DNA of 49,213 nucleotides from Clostridiales bacterium. Lineage in GTDB: Bacteria > Bacillota > Dehalobacteriia > UBA4068. The notes below the pieces were generated by a model that made no database searches, was not told the origin of the DNA, and worked only from the letters and a program-made list of their open reading frames with translations. The DNA lies in the NCBI GenBank assembly GCA_009783415.1, contig WRHF01000001.1:1-49213 (forward strand), written 5' to 3'. The first letter of the stretch is position 1. The number at the start of each line of letters is the position of its first letter. Positions 4,042 through 46,391 of the stretch are shown one piece after another. The translations under genes and the position numbers were made by a program.

Positions 4042-4059
4042 ATACAAGACCCCCTTCCT

Positions 4060-4431: not shown

Positions 4432-4460
4432 TTAGTTAAAACACCTCCATCTGAATAGCA

Positions 4461-4572
4461 GTTTTGAGTGTTGAGTGTTGAATTTTGAGTGTTTGTAAAA
4501 ACACTCCGTGTTTTATTGATTGAAAAAAAGGATTTTCAACACTCAACACTCAAAACTCACAACTCATAACTC
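4461..4572. repeat. heptamer-arm hairpin element, full copy
   Basis: 5' arm GTTTTGA GTGTTGA GTGTTGA ATTTTGA GTGTT at 4461-4493. Core hairpin AAAACAC-tcc-GTGTTTT at 4498-4514. 3' arm CAACACT CAACACT CAAAACT CACAACT CATAACTC at 4537-4572. rpmJ-rpsM spacer. Confidence 0.88.
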
Positions 4573-4606
4573 CCAAGGGTGAGCTCCAAAGGGGCTCACC
4601 CTTGGG
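4572..4606 (-). other. 13-bp hairpin overlapping the rpmJ 3' end
   Basis: CCCAAGGGTGAGC (4572-4584) pairs with GCTCACCCTTGGG (4594-4606) across a 9-nt loop. It covers the last three codons and the stop of rpmJ. No U-tract follows on the minus strand. Confidence 0.6.
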
Positions 4607-4709
4607 TTTGTTTGTGTTTGGTATTACGGCAAATAACCATTACTTTGCCTCTTCTTTTGATGATTTTGCACTTTTCGCAAATAGGTTTGACAGAAGCCCG
4701 AACCTTCAT
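4596..4709 (-). CDS. rpmJ: 50S ribosomal protein L36 (zinc-binding type)
   Basis: In-frame ATG 4709 inside ORF 4596-4784 with AAAGGGGG upstream. 37 aa: [37 protein letters not shown]. Confidence 0.95.
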
Positions 4710-4732
4710 AGCAAAAACCCCCTTTAAATTCA

Positions 4733-4791
4733 GTGAATAATGAATAGTGAATAGTGAATAGTTGTGGTAGGTTTTGCTGCGCAAAACAACA
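4733..4791. repeat. heptamer-arm element, arm + core (3' arm degenerate)
   Basis: Arm GTGAATA ATGAATA GTGAATA GTGAATA at 4733-4760. Core hairpin GTTTTGC-tgc-GCAAAAC at 4771-4787. infA-rpmJ spacer. Confidence 0.8.
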
Positions 4792-4830
4792 ACTAACGGC
4801 TTTGTTTTCAGCTATTACCATTAATTGTTT

Positions 4831-5049
4831 TTATTTGTAGCGGTAAACAATTCGACCCCTTTTCAGGTCGTAGGGACTTACTTCCACCGTTACCCTGTCC
4901 CCGGGTAAAATCCTGATATAGTTGGTGCGGATCTTACCGGAAATGTGAGCAAGAACCCGGTGGCCGTTGGCCAGCTCTACCTGAAACATGGCATTGGGCA
5001 AGGGCTCTACCACGATGCCGTCAACTTCGATTGCGTCTTGTTTAGACAA
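4831..5049 (-). CDS. infA: translation initiation factor IF-1
   Basis: ORF 4831-5094. Start moved to TTG 5049 (AAAGGAGCGGGG upstream), giving 72 aa: [39 protein letters not shown]. Confidence 0.93.
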
Positions 5050-5125
5050 CTGCCCCGCTCCTTTCTTTTGAACCCGGTAAAACCGGATTCTCAATCCCCA
5101 CTTTTTGGTAACAAGTTGTTACTGA

Positions 5126-5446
5126 TCAATCAGTTTCTGCTAAGCTGCTCAGAAAAAAGGAAATATGCTCCTTGCGCAAGTGCTGACCGTTTTCCAGCCT
5201 GCTCACAAAATCAGCCGCTATTTTGTGAGTGGGCTGCAAATGGCAGCGATTTTTGGCTTTGGGATTGGCCGCACCTCTTTTTTTACCGTCCACCAAAAGA
5301 ACCCGTTCCTTTGAGGTGGCCAGCACCAGATACCAATGGCCTTTATCCCGCCCTGCCTTGGAACGTACCAGCTGACCGGGACGCAAATCCGGCAGAGCTA
5401 AATCTTTGGTAGTAATTGAGGACTTCTCTTCCGCAAAGTTTGTCAT
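5126..5446 (-). CDS. KOW domain-containing RNA-binding protein
   Basis: 106-aa ORF with a KOW-like segment PGQLVRSKAGRDKGHWYLVL. It occupies the slot between adk and infA seen in many Clostridia. Confidence 0.75.
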   Translation of the reverse strand: MTNFAEEKSSITTKDLALPDLRPGQLVRSKAGRDKGHWYLVLATSKERVLLVDGKKRGAANPKAKNRCHLQPTHKIAADFVSRLENGQHLRKEHISFFLSSLAETD

Positions 5447-5543
5447 TAGCCTTTAAGCCTCACGCATTTATCCATTTTCAGAAATATATTCCTTTTTACC
5501 ATATTTTACCAAAAAGCAAACCATCAGGCCGATTTAGTTACTA

Positions 5544-6203
5544 TCAGTCTTTTTCCCAATCCAATCCCAAAACCTGACCCAGCTCCAACATTACGGCATG
5601 GGCAGGCTGGTTTCCGTTGATAAACTGCAAGGTTTTTCGCTTTTCATAATAAGCAATCAAAGGCGCCGTTTGTACCTCATAAACTTCCAGCCGCTTTTGT
5701 ACGGAGGCCTCGCAGTCATCAGTCCGCTGATAAAGAGATCCTCCGCAAGCATCGCACAGACCTTCGGTTTTTGTAGGACTATATAGCTGATGGTAAATTG
5801 TTCCGCATTGCAGGCAACCTCTGCGTCCGGTTAAGCGCTCAAGCAGGAGTTCCAAAGGCACTTGAATATTCAGCACCACATCAATGGCATTGTCATTGGC
5901 AGCCAGCATGGCGTCCAGGGCTTCGGCCTGGGGCAAAGTACGCGGAAAGCCATCCAGCAAATAGCCTTCCCGGCAATCGGGCCGGCCGATCCGGTCCCGG
6001 ATAATATCCAAAATGATATTATCGGGAACCAACTGGCCTTTATCCATATAGGCCTTTGCTTTTTGTCCCAGTTCCATGCCGGATCCCATCACAGCCCGCA
6101 ACATATCCCCGGTGGAAATATGGGGCAAAAAGAGTTTCTTACTCAACATATCCGCCTGGGTACCCTTACCGGCCCCGGGAGGACCAAGAAGGATTATGCG
6201 CAT
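5544..6203 (-). CDS. adk: adenylate kinase
   Basis: 219-aa ORF with P-loop MRIILLGPPGAGKGTQ and a Cys4 lid CLQCG...CDACGG. Confidence 0.97.
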   Translation of the reverse strand: MRIILLGPPGAGKGTQADMLSKKLFLPHISTGDMLRAVMGSGMELGQKAKAYMDKGQLVPDNIILDIIRDRIGRPDCREGYLLDGFPRTLPQAEALDAMLAANDNAIDVVLNIQVPLELLLERLTGRRGCLQCGTIYHQLYSPTKTEGLCDACGGSLYQRTDDCEASVQKRLEVYEVQTAPLIAYYEKRKTLQFINGNQPAHAVMLELGQVLGLDWEKD

Positions 6204-6209
6204 GATTTT

Positions 6210-7463
6210 TTACCTCATAAAGCCTTCATAGTGGCGTAATAAGAGATGTGATTCGATTTGTTTCATAGTATCTAAAGCCACACCAACGGCAATCAGCAAT
6301 GAGGTGCCGCCAAAAGAAAAGTTCTGTCCACTGACAGCCATGGCTATGCTCGGCATAATAGCAATAAGCGTGAGAAAAATTGCTCCCGCAAAAGTAATAC
6401 GGGAAAGTACCCGGTCCAAATATTCCGCAGTGGGGCGGCCGGGACGTAAACCGGGAATGAAGCCGCCATATTTTTTCAGGTTATCCGCCACATCATTGGT
6501 GTTGAAGGTGACGGCGGTATAGAAATAGGTGAAAACCAGAATCAACAAGCCGTAAGTGACCACATAAACCGGGTGTTGCATATTGAAAATCTTGCTGATA
6601 AAACTGGAGAAACCGCCTTCGGGGAAAAAGTTTGCAAACATACTTGGTATCATCAAAATCGACATAGCAAAGATAATGGGGATAACCCCGGCCTGATTGA
6701 TCTTGATGGGGACATGGGTGCTTTGACCGCCATAGGTCTTGCGGCCTACCACCCGTTTGGCATATTGCACAGGGATTTTCCGCTGAGCCTCCTGCACCGT
6801 TACAATACCTGCAATGACCAAAATGGCCAGAATAAGGAAGAGCAGTACGGTAATAATGCTCATATCGCGATTGCTGATAAGATTCCACACAGTTACAGCT
6901 CCGGTGGGGATCCGGGAAACGATACCGGCGAAGATGATCAGGGAAATACCATTACCAATGCCTTTTTCCGTAATCAGCTCACCCAGCCACATCAAGAACG
7001 CGGTACCTGCGGTAAGAGAGATGGTGGAAATCACTACACTGGCCCAGCTTGGATTGGTAAAAGCCGAGCGCAGCATCATAGACATACCAAAAGCCTGAAA
7101 GAGCCCCAAGACTACCGTACCGTAACGGGTATATTGGGTCATTTTTTTGCGGCCTTCAGGTCCCTCTTTTTGCAGTTTTTCGAAGTAAGGGATAACCATG
7201 GTCAATAGATTCAAAATAATTGAGGCATTAATATAAGGGATAATGCCCATGGCAAAGACAGTGAATCTTTTCAATGATCCGCCGGAGACAATATCCAGCC
7301 AACCGAAAATCTGGGCCCCCATCAAACTGGAAAGAGCATCCGGGTCGATCCCGGGTATAGGCACATGGGCGCCCAGCCTGAAGATCAGGAACATCAACAA
7401 GGTGAACATTATTTTCTTTCTTAATTCCTCAACCTTCCATATTCCTGACAAGGATGATAGCAT
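6210..7463 (-). CDS. secY: preprotein translocase subunit SecY
   Basis: 417-aa polytopic membrane ORF between rplO and adk. Confidence 0.97.
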   Translation of the reverse strand: MLSSLSGIWKVEELRKKIMFTLLMFLIFRLGAHVPIPGIDPDALSSLMGAQIFGWLDIVSGGSLKRFTVFAMGIIPYINASIILNLLTMVIPYFEKLQKEGPEGRKKMTQYTRYGTVVLGLFQAFGMSMMLRSAFTNPSWASVVISTISLTAGTAFLMWLGELITEKGIGNGISLIIFAGIVSRIPTGAVTVWNLISNRDMSIITVLLFLILAILVIAGIVTVQEAQRKIPVQYAKRVVGRKTYGGQSTHVPIKINQAGVIPIIFAMSILMIPSMFANFFPEGGFSSFISKIFNMQHPVYVVTYGLLILVFTYFYTAVTFNTNDVADNLKKYGGFIPGLRPGRPTAEYLDRVLSRITFAGAIFLTLIAIMPSIAMAVSGQNFSFGGTSLLIAVGVALDTMKQIESHLLLRHYEGFMR

Positions 7464-7901
7464 TTATATCACCTCTACTTTACCGCCGGCTGCGGTGATT
7501 TCCTCTGCGGCCTTCTTGGAAGCCGGGCATTGCACTGTCAATTGTTTGGTCAGGGTCCCGTTGGCTAAAACTTTGACCCCGTCTTTAGCAGAACGGATAA
7601 TACCTGCCTGCACCAAGGAATTGGCATCCACAACAGAGCCATCTTCAAAGTAGTTTAAGGCAGCCAGATCCACCTTGACGATCTCTTTTCGAAAAATATT
7701 GGTAAAACCCCGCTTAGGCATGCGGCGGGAAAGAGGCATCTGGCCCCCTTCAAAGCCAGGGCGCACACCCCCGCCGGAACGGGACTTTTGGCCCTTATGC
7801 CCCCGGGCGGAAGTTTTACCCTGACCGGAACCGGTGCCTCTGCCAACCCGGGCAGCTTTAGGCCGCGAGCCGGGAGCAGGGGAAAGTTCACTAAGATTCA
7901 T
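7464..7901 (-). CDS. rplO: 50S ribosomal protein L15
   Basis: ORF 7464-7910. ATG 7901 is preferred, giving [31 protein letters not shown]. Confidence 0.95.
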
Positions 7902-7922
7902 GGTATACACATCCTTTCTTTC

Positions 7923-8045
7923 AATTAGGAATTAGGAATTAGGAATTAGGAGTTATTGTAGTTTTTGCTGCGCAAAAACAATTAATAAAATACTTTGCGG
8001 AGCAAAGTTACATTAATTCCTCATTCCTCATTCCTCATTCCTAAT
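7923..8045. repeat. heptamer-arm hairpin element, full copy
   Basis: 5' arm (AATTAGG)x4 at 7923-7950. Core hairpins GTTTTTGC-tgc-GCAAAAAC at 7961-7979 and CTTTGC-gga-GCAAAG at 7993-8007. 3' arm AATTCCTC ATTCCTC ATTCCTC ATTCCTAATT at 8015-8045. Confidence 0.9.
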
Positions 8046-8219
8046 TTGTTCAACAGTGAGCAGGTGAGCGATAGTCCGCACTTTACCCAGGATGTCCGGC
8101 GTGTCTTCCTGCACTACTGAGGAATGGAGCTTGCGCAAACCCAAGGATTCGGCGGTTCTGCGTTGAGAGGCCTCATAGCCGATCGGGCTTTTTGTGAGGG
8201 TGATTTTTATTTTCGCCAT
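8028..8219 (-). CDS. rpmD: 50S ribosomal protein L30
   Basis: ATG 8219 inside ORF 8028-8285 gives [28 protein letters not shown], 63 aa. The last codons (IRNEE) and the stop lie in a repeat arm. Confidence 0.94.
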
Positions 8220-8232
8220 TTGTTCTCCCTCC

Positions 8233-8739
8233 TTAACCCAAGATTTCCTGAGGGGTTTTGCCGCGCAAGCGGGAAACCTCCTCAACGGTTTTCATGGATT
8301 TCAAACCGGCCAGGGTCGCCTTCACCATATTAACGGCATTGTTGGAGCCCAAAGATTTTGTGAGAATGTTCCGGACGCCGCAACACTCCAAAACCGCCCG
8401 CACCGGGCCGCCCGCAATCACTCCCGTACCTTCGGAAGCAGGCTTGAGCATTACTCTGCCGGCGCCAAAACGGCCAATAGCCTCGTGGGGAATGGTGCCG
8501 TTTAAAATATTGACCTTGTCCATATTCTTTTTGGCATCTTCCACACCTTTACGGATGGCTTCCGGAACTTCCCCGGCTTTACCCATACCGGCGCCTACAT
8601 TACCGTTGCCGTCCCCAACCACAACCAAAGCGCTGAAGCTGAAACGGCGGCCGCCTTTAACAACCTTGGCAACCCGGTTGATATAGACTACTTTCTCCTG
8701 TAACTCTGTTGCATTGGCTTCTTCTTTGATGATAGCCAT
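8233..8739 (-). CDS. rpsE: 30S ribosomal protein S5
   Basis: 168-aa ORF containing [30 protein letters not shown]. Confidence 0.97.
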
Positions 8740-8752
8740 TACTTAACCTCCT

Positions 8753-9115
8753 TTAGAAATCCAGTCCGCCTTCTCTGGCGCCCTCGGCCAAAGCCGCCAC
8801 CCGGCCATGATAAACCAAACCGCCCCGGTCGAAAATAACTTTCTTAACACCTTTAGCTTGAGCTTTTTCCGCCAGCAACAGTCCGGCTTTTTTTGCGGCT
8901 GCTTTATTTCCGCCATATTCCCCTCTTAAAGAAGGATCCAGGGTGGAGGCAGCCGCCAAAGTCACTCTTTGTACATCATCAATAACCTGGGCATAAATAT
9001 GCTTCAGGCTGCGATAGACCGCCAAACGGGGGCAAGCTGCCGTACCGCTGATATTCTTCCGGATACGATAATGCTTCTTAACCCGGATATCTTTTCTCCG
9101 AATAGGCTTATACAT
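8753..9115 (-). CDS. rplR: 50S ribosomal protein L18
   Basis: 120-aa ORF containing [27 protein letters not shown]. Confidence 0.97.
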
Positions 9116-9174
9116 AATATTACTTCCTTCCTATCATCATTAGGAGGATTATATCCCTCCCTGGAAGTCATAAA

Positions 9175-9267
9175 GAATGGAGAATTGAGAATTGAGAATG
9201 TAATGAAGGTTTTTGCTCCACAAAAACATCAATAATTCTCCATTTCCCATTTTCCATTCTCAATTCC
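9175..9267. repeat. heptamer-arm hairpin element, full copy
   Basis: 5' arm GAATGGA GAATTGA GAATTGA GAATG at 9175-9200. Core hairpin GTTTTTG-ctcca-CAAAAAC at 9209-9227. 3' arm AATTCTCCATTTCCCATTTTCCATTCTCAATTCC at 9235-9267, abutting the rplF stop. Confidence 0.9.
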
Positions 9268-9806
9268 TATTTAGCTCCTGCTTTGCCGGCTTTACGTTTC
9301 AGTATTTCGCCTTCGTATTTAATGCCTTTGCCTTTATAGGGCTCCGGCGGGCGTACTTTTCGGATATTGGCGGCAAAAGCCCCTACTTTCTCCCGGTCGA
9401 TACCGCTGACGGTGATCCGGTTAGGCGCGGGAACTTCAATAGAAAGATCGGGTCCGGGATCCATTTCAACCGGATGGGAATAGCCTACGGTAAGAACTAA
9501 ATTAGAACCGGCTTTAGCGGCACGGTAGCCCACACCCACCAGCTCCAGTTTTTTTTCAAAACCTTTGGAAACACCCACTACCATATTGGAAAGCAGAGCC
9601 CGGGTCAAACCGTGCAAAGAACGCTGCTGGGGTTTATCACTGGAGCGCATGACCCGCAAAACGCCGTCTTCCTCCACAATTTGGATTTCCGGAAAGAATT
9701 CCCGGCTCAAAGCCCCTTTGGGTCCCTTGACATCCACCCGCACACCATCAATAGCCACTTCCACCCCGGCAGGCAAAGTTATAGGCATTCTACCTATACG
9801 AGACAT
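9267..9806 (-). CDS. rplF: 50S ribosomal protein L6
   Basis: ATG 9806 inside ORF 9267-9875 gives [17 protein letters not shown]. The upstream 23 codons of the ORF are read-through of a repeat arm. Confidence 0.95.
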
Positions 9807-9823
9807 AGTTACACCTCCTAAAT

Positions 9824-9945
9824 CAGATGTCAGATGCCAGAAGACAGAAGACAGAATATCTATTATTTGCTTCAATAGTTATCGCGGAACGAAAACCTAA
9901 CCTCTTCTGTCTTTAGACTTCTAACTTCTGACTCCCTACTTCTAA
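9824..9945. repeat. heptamer-arm hairpin element, full copy (first of a tandem pair)
   Basis: 5' arm CAGATGT CAGATGC CAGAAGA CAGAAGA CAGAAT at 9824-9857. The core has a degenerate hairpin and ends AAAACCTAACC. 3' arm TCTTCTG TCTTTAG ACTTCTA ACTTCTG ACTCCCT ACTTCTA at 9903-9944. Confidence 0.8.
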
Positions 9946-10060
9946 TTCAGAATCCAAAAGACGGAAGAAGGAGTATTAGGTCTTAGCTTCAACGTTTTGC
10001 GAAGCAAAACCTAACCCGTTCTGTCCTCTGTCCTCTGTCCTCTGACCTCTGTCTTCTGTC
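9946..10060. repeat. heptamer-arm hairpin element (second of a tandem pair)
   Basis: Degenerate 5' arm at 9946-9980. Core hairpin GTTTTGC-gaa-GCAAAAC at 9994-10010, followed by CTAACCC. 3' arm (CTGTCCT)x3 CTGACCT CTGTCTT CTGTC at 10021-10060, abutting the rpsH stop. Confidence 0.8.
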
Positions 10061-10461
10061 TACCAGACATAGCAGAGGACTTCTCCGCCCAAGCCTTGTT
10101 TGCGTGCGCTTTTATCGGTCATTAAGCCGCTGGAGGTGGAAACGATGGCAATGCCCAAGCCACCCAAAACCCGCGGCAATTCATCCTTTTTCGCATAAAC
10201 CCGCAAACCGGGGCGGGAAATCCGTTTCAATCCGGTAACGACCCTTTGTTTCCCGCCTGCCCCATATTTCAGGTACATGCGGATGATCCCCTGTTTGCCG
10301 TCTTCAATATATTCGACATCTTTGATAAAGCCTTCTTCTTTCAGGATATTGGCCAGGCCCATTTTGGTGCGTGAAGCAGGAACCTCCACTTTATCCAGAT
10401 AAACCATATTGGCATTGCGGATCCTGGTCAAGAAATCGGCGATAGGGTCAGTAACAACCAC
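10060..10461 (-). CDS. rpsH: 30S ribosomal protein S8
   Basis: 133-aa ORF with GTG start and GGAAGGAGG upstream; begins [17 protein letters not shown]. Confidence 0.97.
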
Positions 10462-10483
10462 TGTAAAAACCTCCTTCCATTAA

Positions 10484-10669
10484 TCACCAACTGGACTTGG
10501 TGATACCGGGTATTTCACCTTTATAAGCCAAATTTCGGAAGCAAATCCGGCAGATCCCGAATTTACGCATATAGGCATGAGGACGGCCGCAAATACTGCA
10601 GCGATTATAGCCCTGCACCCGAAACTTGGGCTTGCGTTTTTGCTTCACCAGCATTGAAGTCTTGGCCAT
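10484..10669 (-). CDS. rpsZ: 30S ribosomal protein S14 type Z (zinc-binding)
   Basis: 61-aa ORF with CSICG...CRIC. Confidence 0.96.
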
Positions 10670-10740
10670 TGGCCTACCTCCTTACTTATAGGTTTCTAGA
10701 CACCTTTTTCCATTTTCCGTGCTGATAAATATTCGCAAGA

Positions 10741-11283
10741 CTATTTATCAGCGAATGGCATTCCCATTAAGTGCAGCAACTCCCGGCATTCTTCGTCGGT
10801 TTTGGCGGTAGTGACAAAAGCCACTTCCAGGCCCCGCAGCCGGTCGATTTTATCGTATTCGATCTCCGGGAAAATCAATTGTTCCTTCAATCCCAGGGTA
10901 TAATTGCCTCTGCCGTCAAAAGCATTAGCAGAAACCCCTTTGAAATCCCGGACCCGGGGGAGAGCGGCGGAGATCAATTTATCTACAAACTCATACATTC
11001 TCTCGCCCCGCAGGGTCACTTTACAGCCAATGGACATCCCCTGACGCAATTTAAAAGCAGCAATAGACTTTTTAGCCTTGGTGATGATGGGCTTTTGTCC
11101 GGTGATGATTTTTATATCATTGACGGCAGCATCCAAAGCTTTGGGGTTTTGGATAGCCTCCCCCAAGCCCATATTGACTACAACCTTGCCGACTTTGGGA
11201 ATTTCCATCACATTGCCATAGCTGAATTTTTCCTGCAGCTTTTGGCGTATTTCCGTATTATAACGTTCCTTTAGCCTTGCCAT
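10741..11283 (-). CDS. rplE: 50S ribosomal protein L5
   Basis: 180-aa ORF beginning [20 protein letters not shown]. Confidence 0.97.
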
Positions 11284-11307
11284 AAAAGTTTCTCCTCCTT
11301 CCCCCGT

Positions 11308-11649
11308 TTATTTATCAAAAAGATCGCCGCAAATAACACATTTGCGTAAACGTTCCCCGCTTATTTGCAGGTCTTTGCCGATCCGCACAGGCCGCCCGCA
11401 ACGGCTGCAATAAATCATAACATTGGAGCAATCAATAGCAGCCTCCTGTTTGACAATGCCCCCTTGGGGCGCCGCCTTGGTGGGGCGGGTATGGCGGCTG
11501 ACGAGATTGACTTTTTCCACAAAAACCCGGCCGGTCTTGGGTTCCACGGAACGGACTTTGCCTTTTCTTCCTTTGTCCTTGCCGGAAATCACCACCACCG
11601 TATCGCCTTTCTTGACGTGGATCTTATGCTTTTTCGCTTGTTCAGCCAT
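11308..11649 (-). CDS. rplX: 50S ribosomal protein L24 (with C-terminal CxxC...CxxC)
   Basis: 113-aa ORF with KOW segment [21 protein letters not shown] and C-terminal CSRCGRPV...CVICG. Confidence 0.96.
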
Positions 11650-12056: not shown

Positions 12057-12130
12057 GAATTGAGAATTGAGAATTGAGAATTGAGAATTGAAAAGAACAT
12101 TCTCAATTCTCCATTATCCATTCTCAATTC
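12057..12130. repeat. heptamer-arm hairpin element, full copy with minimal loop
   Basis: (GAATTGA)x5 at 12057-12091, loop AAAGAAC, then 3' arm ATTCTCAATTCTCCATTATCCATTCTCAATTC at 12099-12130. rpsQ-rplN spacer. Confidence 0.92.
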
Positions 12131-14092: not shown

Positions 14093-14217
14093 GAGGTTTG
14101 AGTGTTGAATTTTGAGTTTTGAGTTTTGGAAAGCCTTGCTTCGCAAAGCCTGTTAACTAAAGCGTTTCGCATAGCGAAACTTCAAAAACTCAAAACTCAG
14201 CACTCAAAGCTCAAAAC
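14093..14217. repeat. heptamer-arm hairpin element, full copy
   Basis: 5' arm GAGGTTT GAGTGTT GAATTTT GAGTTTT GAGTTTT at 14093-14127. Core hairpins GCCTTGC-ttc-GCAAAGC at 14133-14149 and GTTTCGC-ata-GCGAAAC at 14164-14180. 3' arm TTCAAAAACTCAAAACTCAGCACTCAAAGCTCAAAAC at 14181-14217. Confidence 0.9.
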
Positions 14218-14222
14218 TTTAC

Positions 14223-14507: not shown

Positions 14508-14530
14508 AAGACTTAACCTCCGTTACAAAA

Positions 14531-14626
14531 GAATTGAGAATTGAGAATTGATAATGGAGAATGATTGTAGTTTTTGCTTTGCAAAAACATCTATAATTCT
14601 CAATTCTCCATTCTCCATTCTCCATT
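14531..14626. repeat. heptamer-arm hairpin element, full copy
   Basis: 5' arm (GAATTGA)x3 TAATGGA GAATG at 14531-14563. Core hairpin GTTTTTGC-ttt-GCAAAAAC at 14570-14588. 3' arm AATTCTCAATTCTCCATTCTCCATTCTCCATT at 14595-14626. Confidence 0.9.
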
Positions 14627-14632
14627 GCAACT

Positions 14633-15463
14633 TTATTTGTTCGTTCTGTGTTTGATGATCATCCTGTTGGATTGTTTGTTGCGCTTACGGGTTTTGGCGC
14701 CCAGGGCCGGTTTTCCCCAAGGTGTGACCGGATTGCGGCCTACCGGGCTGCGGCCTTCACCGCCTCCGTGGGGGTGATCTACCGGGTTCATAACCACGCC
14801 GCGGTTAGTGGGCCGGATCCCTTTCCAGCGGTTGCGGCCGGCTTTGCCGATAGTGATATTGCCTTGATCTGCATTGCCCACCTGCCCTATCGTAGCCCGG
14901 CAGTTGACCAACACCATCCGCATTTCTCCGGAGGGCATCCGCAGGGTGGCATATTTGCCTTCCTTGGCCATCAGTTGAATCGTGCTTCCGGCTGAGCGGC
15001 CCATTTTGGCGCCCCGGCCCGGCAGCATTTCCACATTATGAACCACGGTGCCCACAGGAATGGAAGCTAAGGGCAAGGCATTACCCGGACGGATATCCAC
15101 CTCCCGGCCGGAAACCAGCACATCGCCTACGGATATACCCTGAGGGGCAATGATATAACGTTTTTCCCCATCGGCATAGTTGAGCAGAGCAATATTGGCG
15201 GTACGATTGGGATCGTATTCGATAGTTGCTACCTTAGCCGGGATATTATCCTTATCCCGTTTAAAGTCGATCACCCGAAAGCGCCGCTTATGACCGCCGC
15301 CTTGATGGCGCATGGTCAGACGGCCTTGATTATTGCGGCCGGAATTCTTTTTCAAGGGCTCCAAGAGAGATTTTTCCGGGACAGAAGTGGTAATTTCCTC
15401 AAAAGTGGAAACAGTCATATCACGGCGCCCGGGGGAAGTAGGCTTATATTTTTTAATACCCAA
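14633..15463 (-). CDS. rplB: 50S ribosomal protein L2
   Basis: 276-aa ORF with TTG start; contains [14 protein letters not shown]...[14 protein letters not shown]. Confidence 0.97.
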
Positions 15464-19108: not shown

Positions 19109-19200
19109 TTAATTCTACCTCCGTTTTTGTAAAATTTACCTTCGTAGTTTTTAATTTATCTTTATCTATACAGGAAAATCCTGCTGTAACCGGGGTTTTT

Positions 19201-19357
19201 CAATTGACAATTGACAATGGACAATGGACAATTGTTGTTGTTTCGCTCTGCGAAACTTTTATTTAATAAAACCATCTTTTAGTTCAATAATCGGTTTTGC
19301 GAAGCAAAACCTTCCAAAAAATTGTCAATTGTCAATCGTCAATTGTCAATTGTCAAT
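19201..19357. repeat. heptamer-arm hairpin element, full copy
   Basis: 5' arm CAATTGA CAATTGA CAATGGA CAATGGA CAATTG at 19201-19234. Core hairpins GTTTCGC-tct-GCGAAAC at 19240-19256 and GGTTTTGC-gaa-GCAAAACC at 19293-19311. 3' arm ATTGTCA ATTGTCA ATCGTCA ATTGTCA ATTGTCA AT at 19321-19357 contains the fusA stop. Confidence 0.9.
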
Positions 19358-21428
19358 ACCCTCGGTGTCTTACGACAATACTCTCGGTTATATTCTTCGG
19401 TACCTCGAAGTAGTGGTCAAATTGCATGGTATACGTGCCGCGGCCTTGGGTTTTGGAGCGTAGGTCTGTGGCGTAGCCGAACATTTCGGATAGGGGTACA
19501 TAGCCCCGGATTATTTGCAGGCCGCCTTTTAGCTCTACGCCTTCCATCCTGCCCCGGCGGGAGTTGAGATCGCCTATGACATCACCCATATATTCTTCCG
19601 GTACAGAGATTTCGATTTTGAAGACAGGCTCTAAAATAACCGGCATGGCTTTGGCAGTCCCGTCTTTGAAGGCCAGGGACCCTGCGATTTTAAAGGCCAT
19701 TTCCGAAGAATCCACCTCATGGAAACTGCCGTCTACCAGAGTGGCTTTGATGTCCACCGCCGGATAGCCGGCTAAAATGCCGTTTTCCATAGCTTCTTTA
19801 ATACCTGCTTCTACCGGGGCAATAAATTCTTTGGGTATTACCCCGCCCACAATTTTGTTTTCAAAGACGAAACCGGCTCCCGGTTCCTGGGGTTCAAATT
19901 CTACTACGCAATGCCCGTACTGGCCGTGGCCGCCGGTTTGACGCACGTGTTTGCCTACGCCCTTGACGGAACTGCGAATGGTTTCTTTATAAGCCACTTG
20001 AGGCTTGCCCACATTGGCATCGACCCGAAACTCCCGGAGCAGGCGGTCAACAATAATCTCCAAATGCAGTTCGCCCATACCGGCAATCAGAGTCTGTCCG
20101 GTCTCGATATTGGAACGGATCCGGAAAGTAGGATCTTCTTCCGTCAATTTTTGCAAGGCAAGCGCCATTTTATCCTGGTCGGCAGTAGTTTTGGGCTCAA
20201 TGGAAACATCAATGACCGGATCGGGGAAATCCATGGATTCCAGTATCACCTGGGAGTTTTCCGCACAGAGCGTATCCCCGGTCGCGGTAAATTTAAGCCC
20301 TACCGCTGCCAATATATCACCGGCATAGGCATGCGGTATTTCCTCCCGGGAGTTGGCATGCATTTGCAAAAGGCGCCCGACCCGCTCTTTTTTGCCTTTA
20401 GTACTATTATAGACATAAGAACCGTTATTTAAGACCCCGGAATAAACTCTGAAAAATGTCAGCTTCCCCACATAAGGGTCAGTGATAATCTTAAAAGCCA
20501 GGGCCGCAAAAGGCTCGTCGTCGGTAGAATGGCGGACAATGCTCTCGCCGTTAGCATCCGTTCCCTGGATATCGGCAACATCGGTAGGGGCGGGCAGAAA
20601 ATAAACAACGGCATCCAGCAGCTGCTGCACCCCTTTATTTTTAAATGAGGAGCCGCATAGCACCGGGGTAACGGCTACTGCCAAAGTAGCCCGGCGCAAG
20701 CCCCTGATGATTTCTTCTTCAGTAAGCTCTTCCCCCTCCAGATATTTGAGGGTCAGTTCTTCATCGTATTCGGCCGCCGCTTCAATCATTTTATCCCGGT
20801 ATTCCTGAGCCAGCTCCCGTAAATCTTCGGGGATCTCCTGAATTTCGATCTCCCGGCCTTCTTTATCGGTATAGATATTGGCTTCCATTTTGATCAAGTC
20901 TACCAGGCCAAGAAAGTTCTCCTCGCCCCCGATAGGGATTTGCAGGGCCACGGGATTGGCCGATAAGCGCTGACGGATCATTTCTATAGCCCGGAAAAAG
21001 TCGGCGCCGACCCGGTCCATCTTATTGATATAAGCAATACGGGGTACGCCATAGTGGTCTGCCTGACGCCAAACCGTTTCCGATTGCGGTTCCACACAAC
21101 CCACCGAGCAGAACACGGCCACGGCCCCATCCAACACCCGCAAGGAGCGTTCCACCTCTACAGTAAAGTCAACGTGCCCGGGTGTATCTATAATATTGAT
21201 CCTATGATCCTGCCAAAAACAAGTAGTAGCGGCGGAAGTGATAGTGATCCCCCGCTCTTGTTCTTGCACCATATAATCCATAGTAGCAGCGCCGTCATGC
21301 ACCTCACCGGTACGGTGGACCTTGCCGGTATAAAACAAGATCCGCTCGGTGGTAGTGGTTTTACCGGCGTCGATATGGGCCATGATGCCAATATTTCGAG
21401 TTTTTTGCAAAGAAAATTCCCTAGACAT
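19353..21428 (-). CDS. fusA: elongation factor G
   Basis: ATG 21428 inside ORF 19353-21560 gives [28 protein letters not shown]. The upstream 44 codons are read-through of a repeat. Confidence 0.97.
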
Positions 21429-21443
21429 GACGTCTCCTTCGTC

Positions 21444-21578
21444 GAGTTTTGAGTTTTGAGTGTTGAATTTTGAGTTTATTGAAGTTTCGTTATGCGAAAC
21501 CCTTTTTATTGAATGATAGTTTTTGCGCAGCAAAAACCTCCGGCACTCAACATTCAACACTCAAAACTCCGCACTCGC
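21444..21578. repeat. heptamer-arm hairpin element, full copy
   Basis: 5' arm GAGTTTT GAGTTTT GAGTGTT GAATTTT GAGTTTA at 21444-21478. Core hairpins GTTTCG-ttatg-CGAAAC at 21485-21501 and GTTTTTGC-gca-GCAAAAAC at 21519-21537. 3' arm CACTCAA CATTCAA CACTCAA AACTCCG CACTCGC at 21544-21578. Confidence 0.9.
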
Positions 21579-30300: not shown

Positions 30301-30323
30301 TAAACACCTCACCTTTCGGTTAA

Positions 30324-30372
30324 TTAGAAGTTAGAAGTTAGAAGTTAGAAGTTAGAAAATAGAAAATAGAAT
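30324..30372. repeat. heptamer-arm element, arm in rpoB leader; candidate left arm of a cassette-bracketing pair
   Basis: (TTAGAAG)x4 TTAGAAA ATAGAAA ATAGAAT. The best complementary partner in the window is 32171-32205 (27/35 by hand alignment). Confidence 0.8.
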
Positions 30373-39235: not shown

Positions 39236-39445
39236 AGTGTGGAGTGTGGAGTGTGGAGTGTGGAGTTATTGAAGTTTTGCTCCGCAAAACAATTTATTAT
39301 AAGAAAACTATTCAAGAGTGTTTTTACTGATACTATAACTTCAATAATACACATATATGTTTTCGCATATCGAAAACCAACATAACACTTCACTCTCAAC
39401 TCTCAACTCTCCACACTCCACTCTCCACTCTCCACACTCCACTCT
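39236..39445. repeat. heptamer-arm hairpin element, full copy with long core
   Basis: 5' arm (GTGTGGA)x4 at 39237-39264. The 120-nt core has hairpins GTTTTGC-tcc-GCAAAAC at 39274-39290 and GTTTTCG-catat-CGAAAAC at 39359-39377. The 3' arm has 8 units CTTCACT CTCAACT CTCAACT CTCCACA CTCCACT CTCCACT CTCCACA CTCCACT at 39388-39443. It lies between the plus-strand genes ymdB and the dipeptidase. Confidence 0.9.
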
Positions 39446-39468: not shown

Positions 39469-40434
39469 ATGAGAGTAGACGCCCACAACGACACTGCTCT
39501 ACGCCTTTGGGATCTACCTACCATACGTACTGCTCCTGTCGATTATAGGCTTCAGGGACAGTTTTCTCCTCAGGCGGATTTGCTGCGTTGGCAGGAAAAT
39601 TTTGACATTGCTTTTTTTGCTGTCTATATCGACCAGGAAGCTTATGCCGGCCGCTATTTTGCCGCCAGTCAGGAACTGTTCCGCCGCCTGAAAAGGGATT
39701 TGGCCGCTAACAGCGATATTGTCCGGCTTGTCCTCCGGCGGGATGATGTGAGGAAGGATCCCCGCCTTGGGGTTTTGCTGGCAATTGAGGGAGCCGAATG
39801 CTTAGGCGATAACCCGGAACTGCTCCGGGCTTATTTTCATATTGGCGTACGCAGTCTGGGCTTTACCCATAACCCCGCTAATGCCCTGGCCGGAGGCTGC
39901 CAAGCAAAAGGCGGCTTCACCGAGGCAGGCCGCCGCACCGCCCGGCTCGCCAATGAAATCGGGATAATTCTGGATGGCGCTCACCTTAATGAAGAGAGTT
40001 TTTGGGATTTATTGGAAATAAGCAGCCAACCGGTAATCATCTCTCATACTGCCGCCGCCGCTTTGCGCCCTCATTACCGCAACCTGAGCAACGAACAATT
40101 GCGGGCTGTAGCGGCAAACGGCGGAGTGGTTGGAGTGACTTTTGCCAATCTTTTCCTGGCCGATGATGCAGATCTGTCCGACTACCTGCGCCACCTGGAG
40201 CATGTGGCAAAAGTAGCAGGCATAGATCATGTAGGGATCGGCTCCGATTTCGACGGCTGCGATCTGCCTCGGGGGATCAATTCCGTTTCCGATATGCACA
40301 AAGTACTGACCGGCTTAAAAGAAATTGGCTTTAGTGATCTAGAAATCGCCAAAGTCTATGGAGAAAATTTCTGTCGGATTATGAGAAAGATACTGCCGTG
40401 TGATACGGCAGAATTGAAAAAGGAAAAAGGATAA
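39469..40434 (+). CDS. membrane dipeptidase (peptidase M19)
   Basis: 321-aa ORF with AAGGAGG upstream; contains MRVDAHNDTALRL...ISHTAAAALRPHYRNLSNEQL...GIGSDFDG. The last 6 codons lie in a heptamer arm. Confidence 0.88.
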   Translation: MRVDAHNDTALRLWDLPTIRTAPVDYRLQGQFSPQADLLRWQENFDIAFFAVYIDQEAYAGRYFAASQELFRRLKRDLAANSDIVRLVLRRDDVRKDPRLGVLLAIEGAECLGDNPELLRAYFHIGVRSLGFTHNPANALAGGCQAKGGFTEAGRRTARLANEIGIILDGAHLNEESFWDLLEISSQPVIISHTAAAALRPHYRNLSNEQLRAVAANGGVVGVTFANLFLADDADLSDYLRHLEHVAKVAGIDHVGIGSDFDGCDLPRGINSVSDMHKVLTGLKEIGFSDLEIAKVYGENFCRIMRKILPCDTAELKKEKG

Positions 40435-40930
40435 AGGAAAATTGGTAACAGATAATTAATAGTTGGTAATTGATAATTTTAGTGGGATTGGTGGGATTGA
40501 TTTGAGTAATGTTGTTCGGGAGAAAAGTTTTGGATTTGCTGTTCGGATTGTTCGATTATATAAGTTTTTGTGTGCTGAAAAGAAAGAATATGTTCTTTCA
40601 AAGCAGCTTTTGAAGAGTGGAACCAGCATTGGCGCAAATATTGAAGAATCCTTACAAGCCCAAGGGAAAAGGGATTTTCTGAATAAAACCAACATTGCCC
40701 TTAAAGAAGCAACCGAAACCCTATACTGGCTCCGCCTACTCCACGCAACCGGATATATAGATGAAAAACAGACCCAAAGCATATCCTCAGATTGCAAAGA
40801 AATAACTGCCATTCTAGTATCAATCGTAAAAACAACAAAAGCAAATCTAGAACGATCAAGCAAAAAAGAAACCAAACAAATCCCCAAAGAATAGTGATTT
40901 TCCTTTTTCCTTTTTCCTTTTTCCTTTTTC
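40417..40930. repeat. heptamer-arm element carrying a gene in its loop
   Basis: 5' arm AAAAAGG AAAAAGG ATAAAGG AAAATTGG at 40417-40445. 3' arm (CCTTTTT)x4 at 40902-40929 within 40898-40930. The arms are near-perfect complements, and the only content between them is the four-helix-bundle ORF. Confidence 0.85.
40502..40894 (+). CDS. four-helix-bundle protein (23S rRNA intervening-sequence protein family, Avd-like)
   Basis: ORF 40463-40894. TTG 40502 is preferred (GGTGGG 6 nt upstream), but the start is uncertain. EKSFGFAVRIVRLYKFLCAEKKEYVLSKQLLKSGTSIGANIEESLQAQGKRDFLNKTNIALKEATETLYWLRLL matches the TIGR02436/PF05635-type pattern from memory. Confidence 0.85.
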   Translation: MSNVVREKSFGFAVRIVRLYKFLCAEKKEYVLSKQLLKSGTSIGANIEESLQAQGKRDFLNKTNIALKEATETLYWLRLLHATGYIDEKQTQSISSDCKEITAILVSIVKTTKANLERSSKKETKQIPKE

Positions 40931-40958
40931 AATTTATAAATCACCGGAGGTGATTTAC

Positions 40959-41774: not shown

Positions 41775-41856
41775 TTTCTTTTTCCCGTGCTTAAAAAAGC
41801 TCCCTCCGGCATATACTAACCCAGATGGGAAGTATTTCAAATCAGGGGAGTTGCCA

Positions 41857-42174
41857 ATGCCTTCAGAATTGCATTTCAACCGCGAGGAAACCCAGCGTTA
41901 CGAAGATAAAATCCGCCAGCTCCAGGACAATATTTTAAATCTACGGATCAGCCGCCGTATTTTGATGACTTTGCTGGAACAGGTACAAACCGAAAAAGCC
42001 CGCGAGGAAGAACGCCTGCGCAAAGAGGCTCAGCGCCTGCAAAAATCCAACAGCCGCTATGCCGGCAATCTCCTCAAGAAAAACCAGCGCATCCGGGAAC
42101 TGGAGCAAGCCCTGTCGGCTCATTCCGAGTGTAATTCTGAATTGAGCGCATCGCCGTCCACTTCTATCAACTGA
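41857..42174 (+). CDS. hypothetical coiled-coil protein
   Basis: 105 aa from ATG 41857. The heptad-rich, charged sequence (EDKIRQLQDNILNLR...EKAREEERLRKEAQRLQK) is followed by a strong terminator. I recognise no family. Confidence 0.55.
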   Translation: MPSELHFNREETQRYEDKIRQLQDNILNLRISRRILMTLLEQVQTEKAREEERLRKEAQRLQKSNSRYAGNLLKKNQRIRELEQALSAHSECNSELSASPSTSIN

Positions 42175-42244: not shown

Positions 42245-42390
42245 AGACTATGCCTACTATGTGACATGAGAGTTTCTCGCTAGTACAAATTTCCACTTTT
42301 CATAATTTTTCGACTGCCTTCGGCGGCCAATTATTATACGGCCAGAAAAAACAAGATTGGTAAATACGGAGATTAAGGGATTGAAAGATT

Positions 42391-43917
42391 TTAAGATTTT
42401 AGATTGAGCCAAAAAGCGGGACGAACACCACCACCAGAGAAACTGACACTATCACCAATATCATGGACGCCGCCGTTGGGGCTGACATGGGCAGCATTGT
42501 CAGGACTGCAGCCAGGGGAACGCAGCCACCACCACACCGCTTTCCCTTCCAGACGGGCAACACGGGCTTTGTCATACGGAAAGTATTGTTTGACTTCATT
42601 AATGCTAAGCAGAAAAAGATTGTCCTTTGTGTCAATGCTGCCCCTTGTTCTCCACATTTCATTGTCGGGGTTTTTGTTATCCCAAGTCAAAACCCGGCTG
42701 CGTTCTTTATCATCGAAGATCTGCTCCAAAAGCTGGGGAAGCAATTCTTTCTTGAGGGAGCACTTCGCCCATGTCACACTCTCTAGTTTTTTATTGTACG
42801 GAGCCGTCATCAGGCAGTCCTTCGTTATCAGCAACGCCCTGTCCGGTTGCACATCCAGGATATGCCATTCTAAAAGTTTGTTCTTCCATCGGCCCATGGT
42901 ATATATCTCATTTCTAACGAGCGGTTTTTCATCAGACCGTGTTACTTCGGCGGACTTTTTCGCCTGGGTGGGAGAGGATTTTCGGTAGGCGTGCGGAAAC
43001 TCCGGCGCAATAGATTCAACCTCCTTGACCTGGCCTGTGATATCAGCATATATGTACTCCAGGATGTCCTCTACATAGTGATATTCGCCATTAGGATACC
43101 AGATGCAGTGCATTTGCAGCCGATCAGCTATGAATGCCCTGCGTTCCTCAAAAGCTTCTTCCCCGGCTTCACCATCCATCGGCAAAATAGCGTAGTGTCC
43201 GCCTGTACTCAATCCAGTCAGTAAATCCACTGTGCGATCCTCCTTGAGACCGCAGCCGATAAACAGCAGATTGTTTCCGCTAAGAATACTATGAAGCCGT
43301 TTGATATGCTCCGAGTCTTCTTGATATAAATCGTTGTATGAATCTTTGGTCATCACCACTTCATCCGGCGCAGATACGCAGCCATGAATTTTAATCAGGT
43401 AGTGCGAACTGCCCCTTTGCACGCGTAAAGCTTGCCAAGGGGTCAGGTGACGGAGAACCAGTTTTTCCTCAAAGGAGTGCTGCTCCATCAGGAAGGCCCG
43501 TTCAAGTACTTTATCAAAGTTCGTGGTAATAACGAGGGAATTTTTAAATAGCCTGGGAAGATATCGTACAGACATTTTTTTCAGGGACTCATCCCTGATA
43601 AAAGAATCTTTAAACATTGCGACCAATCGATCATAAAAGATCGTGTTACATAGCACATCGTGGATTTTCTGGGCGGCAGCCTCGAAATCACCGCAATTAA
43701 TAAGACTTTCCACTTCATCGGCTTCGCTCTCTCGCCCGTTGAAATGCCCTTTCATCATTTTCCGCAAAGCCACACCCCAAGAGCTGTAAATATCAATAGA
43801 CAATCCCGCGCCTACGAAAGGGATTATGCGATTGCGTCTGATAAGAGGGATAAGTTGATCTTCAAGTATACTGCGGTTTTCAAAACAGTCGAATTTTGGA
43901 TCATCCAAATCAAGCAT
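42391..43917 (-). CDS. SIR2-like (SIR2_2) NADase domain fused to a DUF6273-like C-terminal domain; candidate defence protein
   Basis: ORF 42391-43977. ATG 43917 is preferred (GGAGG 6 nt upstream). Motifs IPFVGAGLS, ITTNFDKVLE, IKIHGC and LLFIGCGLKEDRTVDLL. C-terminal motifs WWWLRSPG...GGGVRPAFWLNL. Confidence 0.75.
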   Translation of the reverse strand: MLDLDDPKFDCFENRSILEDQLIPLIRRNRIIPFVGAGLSIDIYSSWGVALRKMMKGHFNGRESEADEVESLINCGDFEAAAQKIHDVLCNTIFYDRLVAMFKDSFIRDESLKKMSVRYLPRLFKNSLVITTNFDKVLERAFLMEQHSFEEKLVLRHLTPWQALRVQRGSSHYLIKIHGCVSAPDEVVMTKDSYNDLYQEDSEHIKRLHSILSGNNLLFIGCGLKEDRTVDLLTGLSTGGHYAILPMDGEAGEEAFEERRAFIADRLQMHCIWYPNGEYHYVEDILEYIYADITGQVKEVESIAPEFPHAYRKSSPTQAKKSAEVTRSDEKPLVRNEIYTMGRWKNKLLEWHILDVQPDRALLITKDCLMTAPYNKKLESVTWAKCSLKKELLPQLLEQIFDDKERSRVLTWDNKNPDNEMWRTRGSIDTKDNLFLLSINEVKQYFPYDKARVARLEGKAVWWWLRSPGCSPDNAAHVSPNGGVHDIGDSVSFSGGGVRPAFWLNLKS

Positions 43918-43975
43918 GTTCATCCTCCAAACAAGCAGATTTGTTCTAGCAACAGCACTTGCCAATGACGTAAAC

Positions 43976-44005
43976 ATTGTACCACAGGGTGAGCTTCGCC
44001 CGCAA
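43976..44005 (-). promoter_or_regulatory. candidate promoter of the SIR2-like gene (extended -10)
   Basis: TTGCGG (44005-44000), 18 nt, TGgTACAAT (-10 at 43981-43976). Confidence 0.45.
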
Positions 44006-45765: not shown

Positions 45766-46218
45766 TTATTTGCCCTTTTTCAGCTCGATATCTTTAATGT
45801 GTTCTTCAAAATATTGCATTGTAGAATATTGACAAAGCAACTTATTCCTGTAAATATGTAGCGCTGTTTTCGCTGCTTTATATTCCGAAATGTGCTTGAT
45901 AAGTTTTTGCTTAATTATATATTCCTTACCTCGCAAAGAATCAAATTCATTCTGACGAATAAAAGGTTTCTTAGTATTATCAATATATTTCTCATCTGCA
46001 ATAACTACCGCCTTGGAAAAATCTAAGCCACACCTATTATTCTTGTCCGTCCATAATACATGTTCCTTATGATTAATGTCAGATCTTAAGGGAATAGCAA
46101 ACTGCACATCGTTTATTTTGGTGTAAACTAGCGCATAAGGGCGCATAGATTTTTGCTCTATTTCCGTGCATTCTTTATATTTGTCATAAAATAGCTCATT
46201 TAGAAACAGGAACTTCAT
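45766..46218 (-). CDS. type III toxin-antitoxin toxin, ToxN/AbiQ-like endoribonuclease
   Basis: ORF 45766-46233. ATG 46218 is preferred (GGAGG 8 nt upstream). MKFLFLNELFYDKY...RPYALVYTKINDVQFAIPLRSDINHKEH resembles the ToxN/AbiQ N-terminal pattern. It is preceded by a repeat array and hairpin. Very AT-rich. Confidence 0.65.
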   Translation of the reverse strand: MKFLFLNELFYDKYKECTEIEQKSMRPYALVYTKINDVQFAIPLRSDINHKEHVLWTDKNNRCGLDFSKAVVIADEKYIDNTKKPFIRQNEFDSLRGKEYIIKQKLIKHISEYKAAKTALHIYRNKLLCQYSTMQYFEEHIKDIELKKGK

Positions 46219-46239
46219 GCAATATGCCTCCATAAATGA

Positions 46240-46264: not shown

Positions 46265-46356
46265 TCTTCTCAGTGAACTTTTTTTTGTTTACCCTGCTCA
46301 CGTTCTATGAGCAGATCTTCTCAGTGAACTTTTTTTATACTCACGTTCTATGAGTA
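46265..46356 (-). ncRNA. candidate type III antitoxin RNA (ToxI/CptI-like), two tandem repeats
   Basis: Transcript sense: unit 1 (46356-46314) is TACTCATAGAACGTGAGTAT-A7-GTTCACTGAGAAGATC. Unit 2 (46313-46265) is TGCTCATAGAACGTGAGCAGGGTAAAC-A8-GTTCACTGAGAAGA. The internal 6-bp hairpin shows a compensatory change between units. The locus lies between a consensus promoter and the toxin gene. Confidence 0.6.
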
Positions 46357-46391
46357 TTTATAGAATAAGATGAATCTTACTCTTTGTTATT

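Follow-up and report, generated by a model that had tools for sequence, protein, structure and literature searches.

A gene on the reverse strand of a Clostridiales contig (WRHF01000001.1, assembly GCA_009783415.1) encodes a SIR2-like NADase joined to a DUF6273 domain, and it raises the question of what such a protein could sense and whether it acts alone. The analysed stretch comprises positions 1 to 49,213 of this contig and is called the window hereafter. An initial annotation of this DNA had proposed a stand-alone, single-gene defence system in which a SIR2 effector is joined to a DUF6273 sensor. The fusion itself was recognised correctly, and no such fusion is reported in the literature searched; the stand-alone part of the proposal was incomplete, since homologues in three related loci lie inside or abut a cassette of a diversity-generating retroelement (DGR). 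DGRs combine Avd, a template repeat (TR) and an error-prone reverse transcriptase (RT), and the TR is copied into a variable region (VR) with the TR adenines randomised. Sequence and structure modelling point to the answer that the gene probably encodes a DGR-targeted SIR2 NADase-lectin fusion, i.e., a cytoplasmic two-module receptor of the immune type that would serve as a re-targetable sensor for abortive infection.

The gene and the two domains of its product

The full open reading frame (ORF) spans 42391..43977 (-) with its stop codon at 42391-42393, and the protein has 528 aa when translated from the first ATG or 508 aa with ATG 43917 as the start. The latter is the best-supported start because a ribosome binding site (RBS) GGAGG lies 6 nt upstream of it (43928-43924) and because all homologues begin with MLD(L) in the alignment; the 508-aa coding sequence (42391..43917, reverse strand) proposed earlier therefore stands, and it is supported by the ORF listing, Pfam and 24 full-length homologues. 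An extended -10 motif, TGgTACAAT (43984-43976), was read from the sequence and overlaps the upstream ATG 43977; together with the RBS it makes up a set of putative expression signals (43924..43984, reverse strand) that match at the consensus level only. Of the promoter claimed for the gene the motif is visible, but the consensus scan called no promoter at 43984-43976, where the -35 hexamer TTGCGG matches at 3/6 positions only. The gene had also been described as AT-rich with about 40% GC, which fails for the whole gene (46.8%, compared with 49.0% in the window and 47.8% and 48.9% in the 5-kb flanks); a horizontally acquired AT-rich islet was rejected because the GC content is not deviant. Convergence with the neighbouring ORF (41851..42174, forward strand) was confirmed. 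No NCBIfam model was found for the 508-aa protein, and, in agreement with the initial annotation, neither a signal peptide nor a transmembrane segment was detected in it (maximum 19-aa hydropathy 1.26), on which ground a secreted toxin or adhesin was ruled out. The protein is, by prediction, cytoplasmic and built of two modules.

Every motif quoted in the initial annotation is present in the protein, and both of its domain assignments are right by Pfam, with scores well above the curated cutoffs. The N-terminal SIR2_2-type NAD+ hydrolase domain (aa 1-297; 43027..43917, reverse strand) was delimited using PF13289, PADLOC, Foldseek and an alignment with ThsA, the Pfam match covering aa 128-251 (E=2.1e-21, 76.9 bits vs a cutoff of 24.5). 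The catalytic residues Asn133 (codon 43519-43521, reverse strand) and His178 (codon 43384-43386, reverse strand) align to N112 and H152 of BcThsA, and both residues, within the motifs TTNxD and K(I/L/M)HG, are invariant across 25 family sequences. The PADLOC models LmuA (the best), ThsA and Dsr1 match only the N-terminal ~230 residues; the ThsA models cover aa 26-224 only, and of the 1,227 positions of the Dsr1 model only positions 13-218 match. Foldseek searches with the N-terminal domain returned ThsA (8bto, E=7.6e-11), DSR2 (8wyc, template modelling (TM) score 0.74), KomC and human FAM118B, and a profile search against PDB sequences agrees with these closest matches (ThsA 7uxt and 6lhx among them). 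The domain is thus predicted to be an NAD+ hydrolase like ThsA, DSR2 and KomC, and its catalytic dyad is intact; the structural matches to these three proteins strengthen the defence reading of the gene.

A confident AlphaFold2 (AF2) model (mean predicted local distance difference test (pLDDT) score 82.4), for which 25 homologues were used, shows two folded domains, which supports the domain split. Between them lies a disordered interdomain linker of variable length (aa 298-330; 42928..43026, reverse strand) with a pLDDT <50, which is indel-rich and unconserved in the alignment. The C-terminal DUF6273 domain (aa 335-508; 42394..42915, reverse strand), a putative ligand sensor, was assigned to the C-type-lectin fold by PF19789, AF2 and Foldseek; the Pfam match spans aa 359-505 (E=1.6e-19, 70.8 bits vs a cutoff of 23.5), the pLDDT of the domain is ~85-96, and it superimposes on phage DUF6273 proteins with a TM score of 0.82 and a root-mean-square deviation of 2.3 Å. 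DUF6273 has been described as a C-lectin fold that serves gut phages as a DGR target and has a C-terminal VR (PMC10743442, PMC11792537, bioRxiv 2024.10.15.618418). The view of DUF6273 as a module of secreted or surface proteins of Firmicutes holds in part: the papers found present it mainly as this gut-phage DGR target, and they also include one secreted IgA protease with the domain. A protein search with the sensor half alone listed just short stand-alone DUF6273 proteins and no new effector architectures.

The variable region and the DGR cassettes of related loci

In the alignment of the family the invariant WWWLRSPG is followed by ~30 residues in which invariant scaffold positions alternate with hypervariable ones, and the sequences end with the invariant VRPAFWLNLKS. 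All of the hypervariable codons have the form NN[C/T], which is what mutagenesis would make of AAY codons, and the mean entropy at codon positions 1/2/3 is inverted in this region (1.03/0.93/0.81 in the VR vs 0.61/0.46/1.19 in the rest of the gene). A VR of 130 nt homologous to the TRs of related DGRs (42413..42542, reverse strand) was delimited from the TR of the related locus L162, from entropy and from a sibling strain (L161, see below); its hypervariable core comprises codons 470-497 (42427-42510, reverse strand), as given by the alignment and codon entropy. The scaffold of the window VR is GCGGTGTGGTGGTGGCTGCGTTCCCCTGGC, and a matching TR would have the pattern GCGGTGTGGTGGTGGCTGCGTTCCCCTGGC-(AAY-rich)-GGTGTTCGTCCCGCTTT. 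When compared with the non-cognate TR of L162, the window VR is changed at 18/33 TR-adenine positions and at 11/97 other positions (p=1.5e-6). Judged by these sequence comparisons, the last ~30 residues of the 508-aa protein are a hypervariable DGR VR.

The VR is followed by a conserved, VR-specific 3' element, TTGGCTCAATCTAAAATCTTAAAATCTTTCAATC (42379..42412, reverse strand), which covers the final codons together with the stop codon and ~12 nt of the non-coding DNA that follows. This 34-nt element (TTGGCTCAATCT.AAATCTTAA.ATCTTTCAATC) is nearly identical downstream of the VRs of SIR2, DUF4062, NACHT and DUF6273-only genes and is intact in the window, and the TRs part from the VRs exactly at its 5' edge, after ...CGTCCCGCTTT. 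It behaves as expected of a homing signal of the initiation of mutagenic homing (IMH) type, and would have a homing role for which the IMH of Bordetella phage BPP-1 is the model. About 60 nt past the stop codon lies a hairpin, GGCCGCCGAAGGCAGTC. Its interpretation as a DGR cruciform was dropped, because it is degenerate in the window and resembles an ordinary terminator in relatives.

The cassette itself is found in related loci. In L092, a metagenome-assembled genome (MAG) of a termite-gut Bacillota, the gene order is a DUF6273-only target (VR1), an Avd-like ORF (best Pfam match bAvd with 36 bits, under its 40-bit cutoff), the TR (131 nt, 1247-1377, rich in AAC and AAT), an RT with the DGR-diagnostic motifs LGNQTSQ and YMDD, and the SIR2-DUF6273 gene (VR2). 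Mismatches between this TR and VR2 fall on TR adenines in 15/16 cases and those with VR1 in 19/21 cases. Elsewhere, avd is located immediately downstream of the SIR2-DUF6273 gene (L083) or the RT immediately upstream of it (L087). The same retroelement type also serves other effectors: L162 (termite gut, 1796-11404) carries one Avd-TR-RT unit with four targets, three of them DUF4062-DUF6273 genes and one an NNH3-NACHT-DUF6273 STAND gene, with mismatches at TR adenines in 14/14 and 19/19 cases. Altogether, 90-100% of the mismatches of cognate TR/VR pairs in the homologous termite-gut loci are at template adenines. The pattern recurs between two SIR2-DUF6273 genes, L083 (387-1964) and L088 (4390-5904), in which the last ~700 nt and the 3' flank are identical except for 16 substitutions, 16/16 of them at TR-adenine positions. 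DGR targeting of the SIR2-DUF6273 family is demonstrated by these pairs, and the window copy may currently be acted upon as well.

Some features of these loci were noted in passing. The L083 and L088 genes are mosaic, with a 5' part of ~1 kb (the SIR2 part) that is only 55-70% identical and a 3' part of ~700 nt plus ~110 nt of flank that is 100% identical outside the VR, which suggests either recombination or paralogues with a common sensor cassette. A 393-aa ORF immediately downstream of the SIR2-DUF6273 gene in L089 (3151-4332, forward strand) starts with a SIR2-like GAGAS motif (ILLVGAGASRDIGYPTLED) and is matched by no Pfam family at E<=1e-3; this could be a second SIR2-like gene that has diverged.

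No TR was found in the 49-kb window by blastn-short and relaxed blastn searches with the gene (the best hit was a 14-nt exact match), a repeat search of the window returned no repeat family involving the gene, and tblastn with the L092 RT and Avd detected neither protein there. Because RT and TR are both missing from the 49-kb window, the copy studied here would be a target that is either served remotely, in trans, or has been orphaned recently. Remote targets do exist in the family: in L082 (9862-12885) a NACHT-DUF6273 gene directly follows the SIR2-DUF6273 gene and both have a VR-like 3' end, with no RT or TR on the 15-kb contig. The NACHT VR copy in L082 appears frameshifted, the ORF ending at 12771 and the VR homology extending to 12885.

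How recently the window VR has changed was indicated by L161, a sibling contig from a 'Clostridiales bacterium' MAG (assembly GCA_031283245.1, protein MDR2712133.1), in which synteny with the window is kept and the flanks are 98-99% identical. The two genes have 0 differences over ~1,330 nt and 44 in the final ~190 nt, with 44/44 located within 42400-42599. The change in the window VR would be very recent, because the gene body has no single nucleotide polymorphisms (SNPs) relative to L161 while the flanking genes are 1-2% divergent. Three results tie the window copy to a DGR, namely the differences from L161 that are confined to the VR, the adenine-biased footprint and the intact IMH-like element, all of them comparisons of sequence. 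The L161 VR lies at the end of its contig, which stops 12 nt past the stop codon; contigs also end just past the VR in L164 (134 nt after the stop codon) and L084 (3 nt). Such ends are consistent with assembly breaks caused by VR heterogeneity in the population or by repeated VR scaffolds.

Proposed mechanism, competing explanations and genomic surroundings

In the mechanism that we propose, a DGR would copy its TR into the VR of DUF6273 and randomise the template adenines, whereby an AAY template codon would become NNY in the gene and the ligand-binding surface would be rewritten with the fold left intact. The variable lectin surface would bind a molecule from an invader (a structural protein of a phage is the most plausible candidate), and ligand binding would either relieve autoinhibition of the SIR2 domain, as in DSR2, or drive oligomerisation, as in ThsA, KomC and the filaments of FAM118B. 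Depletion of NAD+ by the SIR2 domain would then abort the infection, as in DSR2, and the DGR would let the lineage re-target its sensor quickly. NADase activity, ligand, mode of activation and defence phenotype are all steps that we infer. The more specific idea of a minimal two-domain, DGR-programmable receptor, in which a lectin 'paratope' is wired to an NAD+-depleting effector and diversified in cis or in trans, is put forward tentatively as a real possibility short of an even chance.

The defence reading is strengthened by the exchange of immune-type effectors on one DUF6273 sensor, which carries SIR2 or DUF4062, both NADases, in some proteins and an NLR-like NACHT NTPase of the STAND type in others. 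Effector swapping on one sensor is a hallmark of defence systems and speaks against a role in housekeeping or as an adhesin.

Several observations weigh against the reading as a DGR-targeted immune receptor. The 49-kb window is free of any RT, TR or DGR-type Avd. The differences between the window and L161 include synonymous changes of the non-adenine scaffold (CTG CGT TCC CCT GGC vs CTT CGG TCG CCC GGT); since the non-adenine scaffold differs, the two alleles were not both derived from one shared TR by adenine mutagenesis alone, and these changes would call for a second TR, for gene conversion or for a contig end that is chimeric. The neighbours of the gene are mostly housekeeping genes, with no classic defence island apart from a TenpIN locus. 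The family is rare (~24 full-length members) and all members traced to a source come from termite guts.

These points bear on three other explanations. The first, which we regard as rather unlikely, is that the genome now lacks a cognate DGR and the gene encodes an orphaned sensor, either a DSR2-like NADase sensor of fixed specificity or a drifting one, so that the VR differences are historical. It would account for the 49 kb free of RT, TR and Avd and agrees with DGR-less genomes keeping DUF6273 targets, which are noted in the literature, and with scaffold-level synonymous differences from L161 that are not explained by one active TR; against this stand the absence of SNPs in the gene body next to flanks diverged by 1-2%, by which the VR change would be very recent, the intact IMH-like element, and the remote targets documented in L082 on a 15-kb contig with no RT or TR.

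The VR difference in the window lineage could instead stem from homologous recombination or gene conversion with a VR-bearing paralogue, or from a chimeric end of the L161 contig, and not from mutagenic retrohoming. The non-adenine synonymous changes fit such an origin, as do the resemblance of the L161 VR scaffold to the L082 type and the fact that the L161 contig extends only 12 nt beyond the stop codon. Recombination does occur in the family, as the clearly mosaic L083 and L088 genes show. It is nonetheless an improbable account, as it leaves unexplained the adenine-specific footprint of the window VR, the pure TR-adenine pattern of L083/L088 and the cognate TR/VR pairs, and it concerns how the window allele changed rather than what the gene is.

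That the protein is not antiviral, being a DGR-diversified NAD-dependent regulator (deacylase or ADP-ribosyltransferase) or an interbacterial toxin with a cell-binding lectin, is very improbable. In its favour, DGRs often target proteins of the surface or of adhesion, and genes of the immunity type (SUKH, Imm26) lie within a few kb in L082 and L091. Against it, the protein has no signal peptide, transmembrane segment or secretion-associated (LXG/Rhs/WXG-type) domain and no conserved adjacent immunity gene, its closest structures are all abortive-infection or filament-forming SIR2 NADases, and its sister proteins, which are served by the same DGR, contain modules typical of immune sensors, i.e., DUF4062 NADase and NACHT STAND.

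The DGR-targeted receptor remains the preferred reading. Approximately 24 full-length homologues, 52-70% identical, were found in a collection of 5.8 billion protein clusters; where a homologue was traced to its contig, the source was a JGI or ENA metagenome or MAG. The sample codes of two species-representative MAGs with a homologue are those of higher-termite gut samples. The viral contigs of IMG/VR gave no match to the DUF6273 half or to a 20-nt VR/IMH pattern, and a phage origin was ruled out on this basis. The flanks of the homologues vary (HicB, a PD-(D/E)XK ATPase, Imm26, DUF4143 ATPases, glycolysis genes, rRNA methylases), and no conserved partner was found in them except DGR parts.

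In the window most of the neighbours have housekeeping functions (YmdB, an M19 dipeptidase, a PHP-domain protein, a dCMP deaminase and a UDP-GlcNAc 2-epimerase). The type III toxin-antitoxin (TA) locus announced at a distance of 1.8 kb is indeed there: a TenpIN-family type III toxin (45766..46233, reverse strand; NCBIfam NF047358, 138 bits vs a cutoff of 90) is located 1.85 kb from the SIR2-DUF6273 gene, with two tandem repeats upstream of it (46268-46361, reverse strand) that match the Rfam family RF02925 '6A RNA' with 65.7 and 33.9 bits. By sequence the 6A motif looks like a TenpI antitoxin repeat, and no paper with both terms, '6A RNA' and TenpI, was found in the literature searched. Of the small defence islet inferred earlier the TA neighbour is real, but the other neighbours are mostly housekeeping genes and do not form a classic defence island. 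In L161 the TenpIN gene has an internal deletion of 164 nt (window 45998-46161).

On the other side of the gene, a four-helix-bundle gene (40463..40894) was considered as the Avd of a DGR and rejected, since it matches TIGR02436/23S_rRNA_IVP and the DGR Avd model only with E=0.014. It is located between 30-nt inverted arms (40412-40441 and 40905-40934) that are 97% complementary, and the segment 40412-40934 looks like an inserted cassette of the intervening sequence (IVS) type, in the same repeat style as the palindromes of the window. At least nine of these intergenic palindromic elements were counted in the window (7923-8046, 9209-9273, 12057-12130, 14094-14218, 14525-14640, 19192-19361, 21443-21577, 30322-30364 and 39236-39445), each with long stems of tandem heptamer repeats around one or two hairpins (GTTTyGC-NNN-GCrAAAC). 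The repeat units differ by copy (GAATTGA, AATTAGG, GAGTTTT, CAATTGA, GGAGTGT, AGAAGTT) and the arms remain complementary, with predicted RNA-fold z-scores of -5.4 to -12. The elements could be terminator-associated repeats, elements similar to miniature inverted-repeat transposable elements (MITEs), or IVS-like elements.

Implications and comparison with known systems

That bacteria obtain hypervariable antigen sensors through DGRs is a proposal that, to our knowledge, still awaits demonstration; its examples, large STAND or MoxR systems with several components in uncultured multicellular bacteria, are difficult to test. The SIR2-DUF6273 family shrinks the idea to one 508-aa protein and a DGR cassette of ~2 kb, with the loss of NAD+ as an easily measured output and with known knock-outs (N133A, H178A). 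Adaptive-like immunity by targeted hypermutation would therefore become directly testable, because the protein is compact and its output can be measured. The direct-sensing SIR2 architecture known from DSR2 could be extended to a programmable sensor, with SIR2, DUF4062 and an NLR-like NTPase plugged onto one diversified sensor, and with this family nature would provide a scaffold on which binders linked to a cell-death read-out can be evolved. If the proposal is true, one retroelement also serves NADase (DUF4062) and NLR-like (NACHT) paralogues, and unicellular gut Firmicutes possess a repertoire of somatically diversified antigen receptors, a functional analogue of the diversification of antibodies or variable lymphocyte receptors (VLRs) that could be reconstituted and re-targeted in the laboratory.

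Precedent for DGR-diversified C-lectin 'antigen sensors' in conflict systems is given by Kaur et al. (2021, eLife, PMC8195603) and Dore et al. (2024, PNAS, PMC10907252), whose systems are multi-component, consisting of a STAND NTPase or a MoxR-vWA ternary system with peptidase or TIR effectors. As in the family described here, the DGR diversifies the C-terminal C-lectin of an intracellular conflict protein and has multiple targets, some of them remote, and NACHT-C-lectin targets occur alongside, as in L082 and L162. In contrast, the window protein has no NTPase domain, its lectin is of the DUF6273 subtype with SIR2 fused to it, and the family is found in unicellular termite-gut Clostridia. SIR2 is mentioned as a target in neither PMC8195603 nor PMC10907252. 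A full-text literature search retrieved no paper linking a DGR to a SIR2 or NADase target, and the part of the supplementary tables of Roux et al. (2021) that was covered holds no SIR2 or PF13289 entry.

The DUF6273 targets of phages (tentaclins, Mtd-like) share the Pfam domain, the C-lectin fold and the C-terminal VR (PMC10743442, PMC11792537, bioRxiv 2024.10.15.618418), but they are proteins of the virion that bind receptors or serve as decoration and are fused to Ig-like domains, whereas the protein described here is predicted to be a cytoplasmic NADase fusion. The DUF4062-DUF6273 proteins represent a sister architecture with the same sensor at 61-65% identity and the same DGR type, and both effectors are NADases, of a TIR-like fold in DUF4062 and of the SIR2 fold here. 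DUF4062 is described in preprints from 2026 as a TIR-like NADase defence domain (the 'Swarozyc', 'Evangelion' and 'NIR' families); DGR and lectin fusions are unmentioned in the Swarozyc and NIR preprint texts.

Among the SIR2 systems, ThsA comes closest to the SIR2 domain in both structure and sequence, with the catalytic residues N112/H152 aligned to N133/H178. It differs in that its SLOG domain senses glycocyclic ADP-ribose (gcADPR) made by the TIR protein ThsB, in the place of which the window protein has a hypervariable lectin sensor. Membership in Thoeris was ruled out, given the lack of a SLOG/STALD domain and of a TIR partner; the Pfam-scanned ORFs between 35.2 and 46.2 kb contain no TIR domain. 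Lamassu was likewise ruled out, as the LmuA match covers the SIR2 part only and no SMC/LmuB-like match was found among the scanned neighbours (35.2-48.8 kb). Membership in DSR1/DSR2 was also rejected, because the protein has 508 aa compared with ~1,000-1,200, its C-terminus is a C-lectin fold and only the SIR2 part matches.

By analogy, the SIR2-DUF6273 protein would nevertheless work most like DSR2, a direct-sensing SIR2 fusion. DSR2 of Bacillus subtilis is a single polypeptide with an N-terminal SIR2 NADase, in which the catalytic His is conserved (8wyc is the structural match given above), and a C-terminal sensor that binds a phage structural protein directly. The two proteins differ in that DSR2 has ~1,000 aa and a fixed helical-repeat sensor, whereas the window protein reaches the same order of modules in 508 aa with a C-type-lectin DUF6273 sensor that is diversified at its tip by a DGR.

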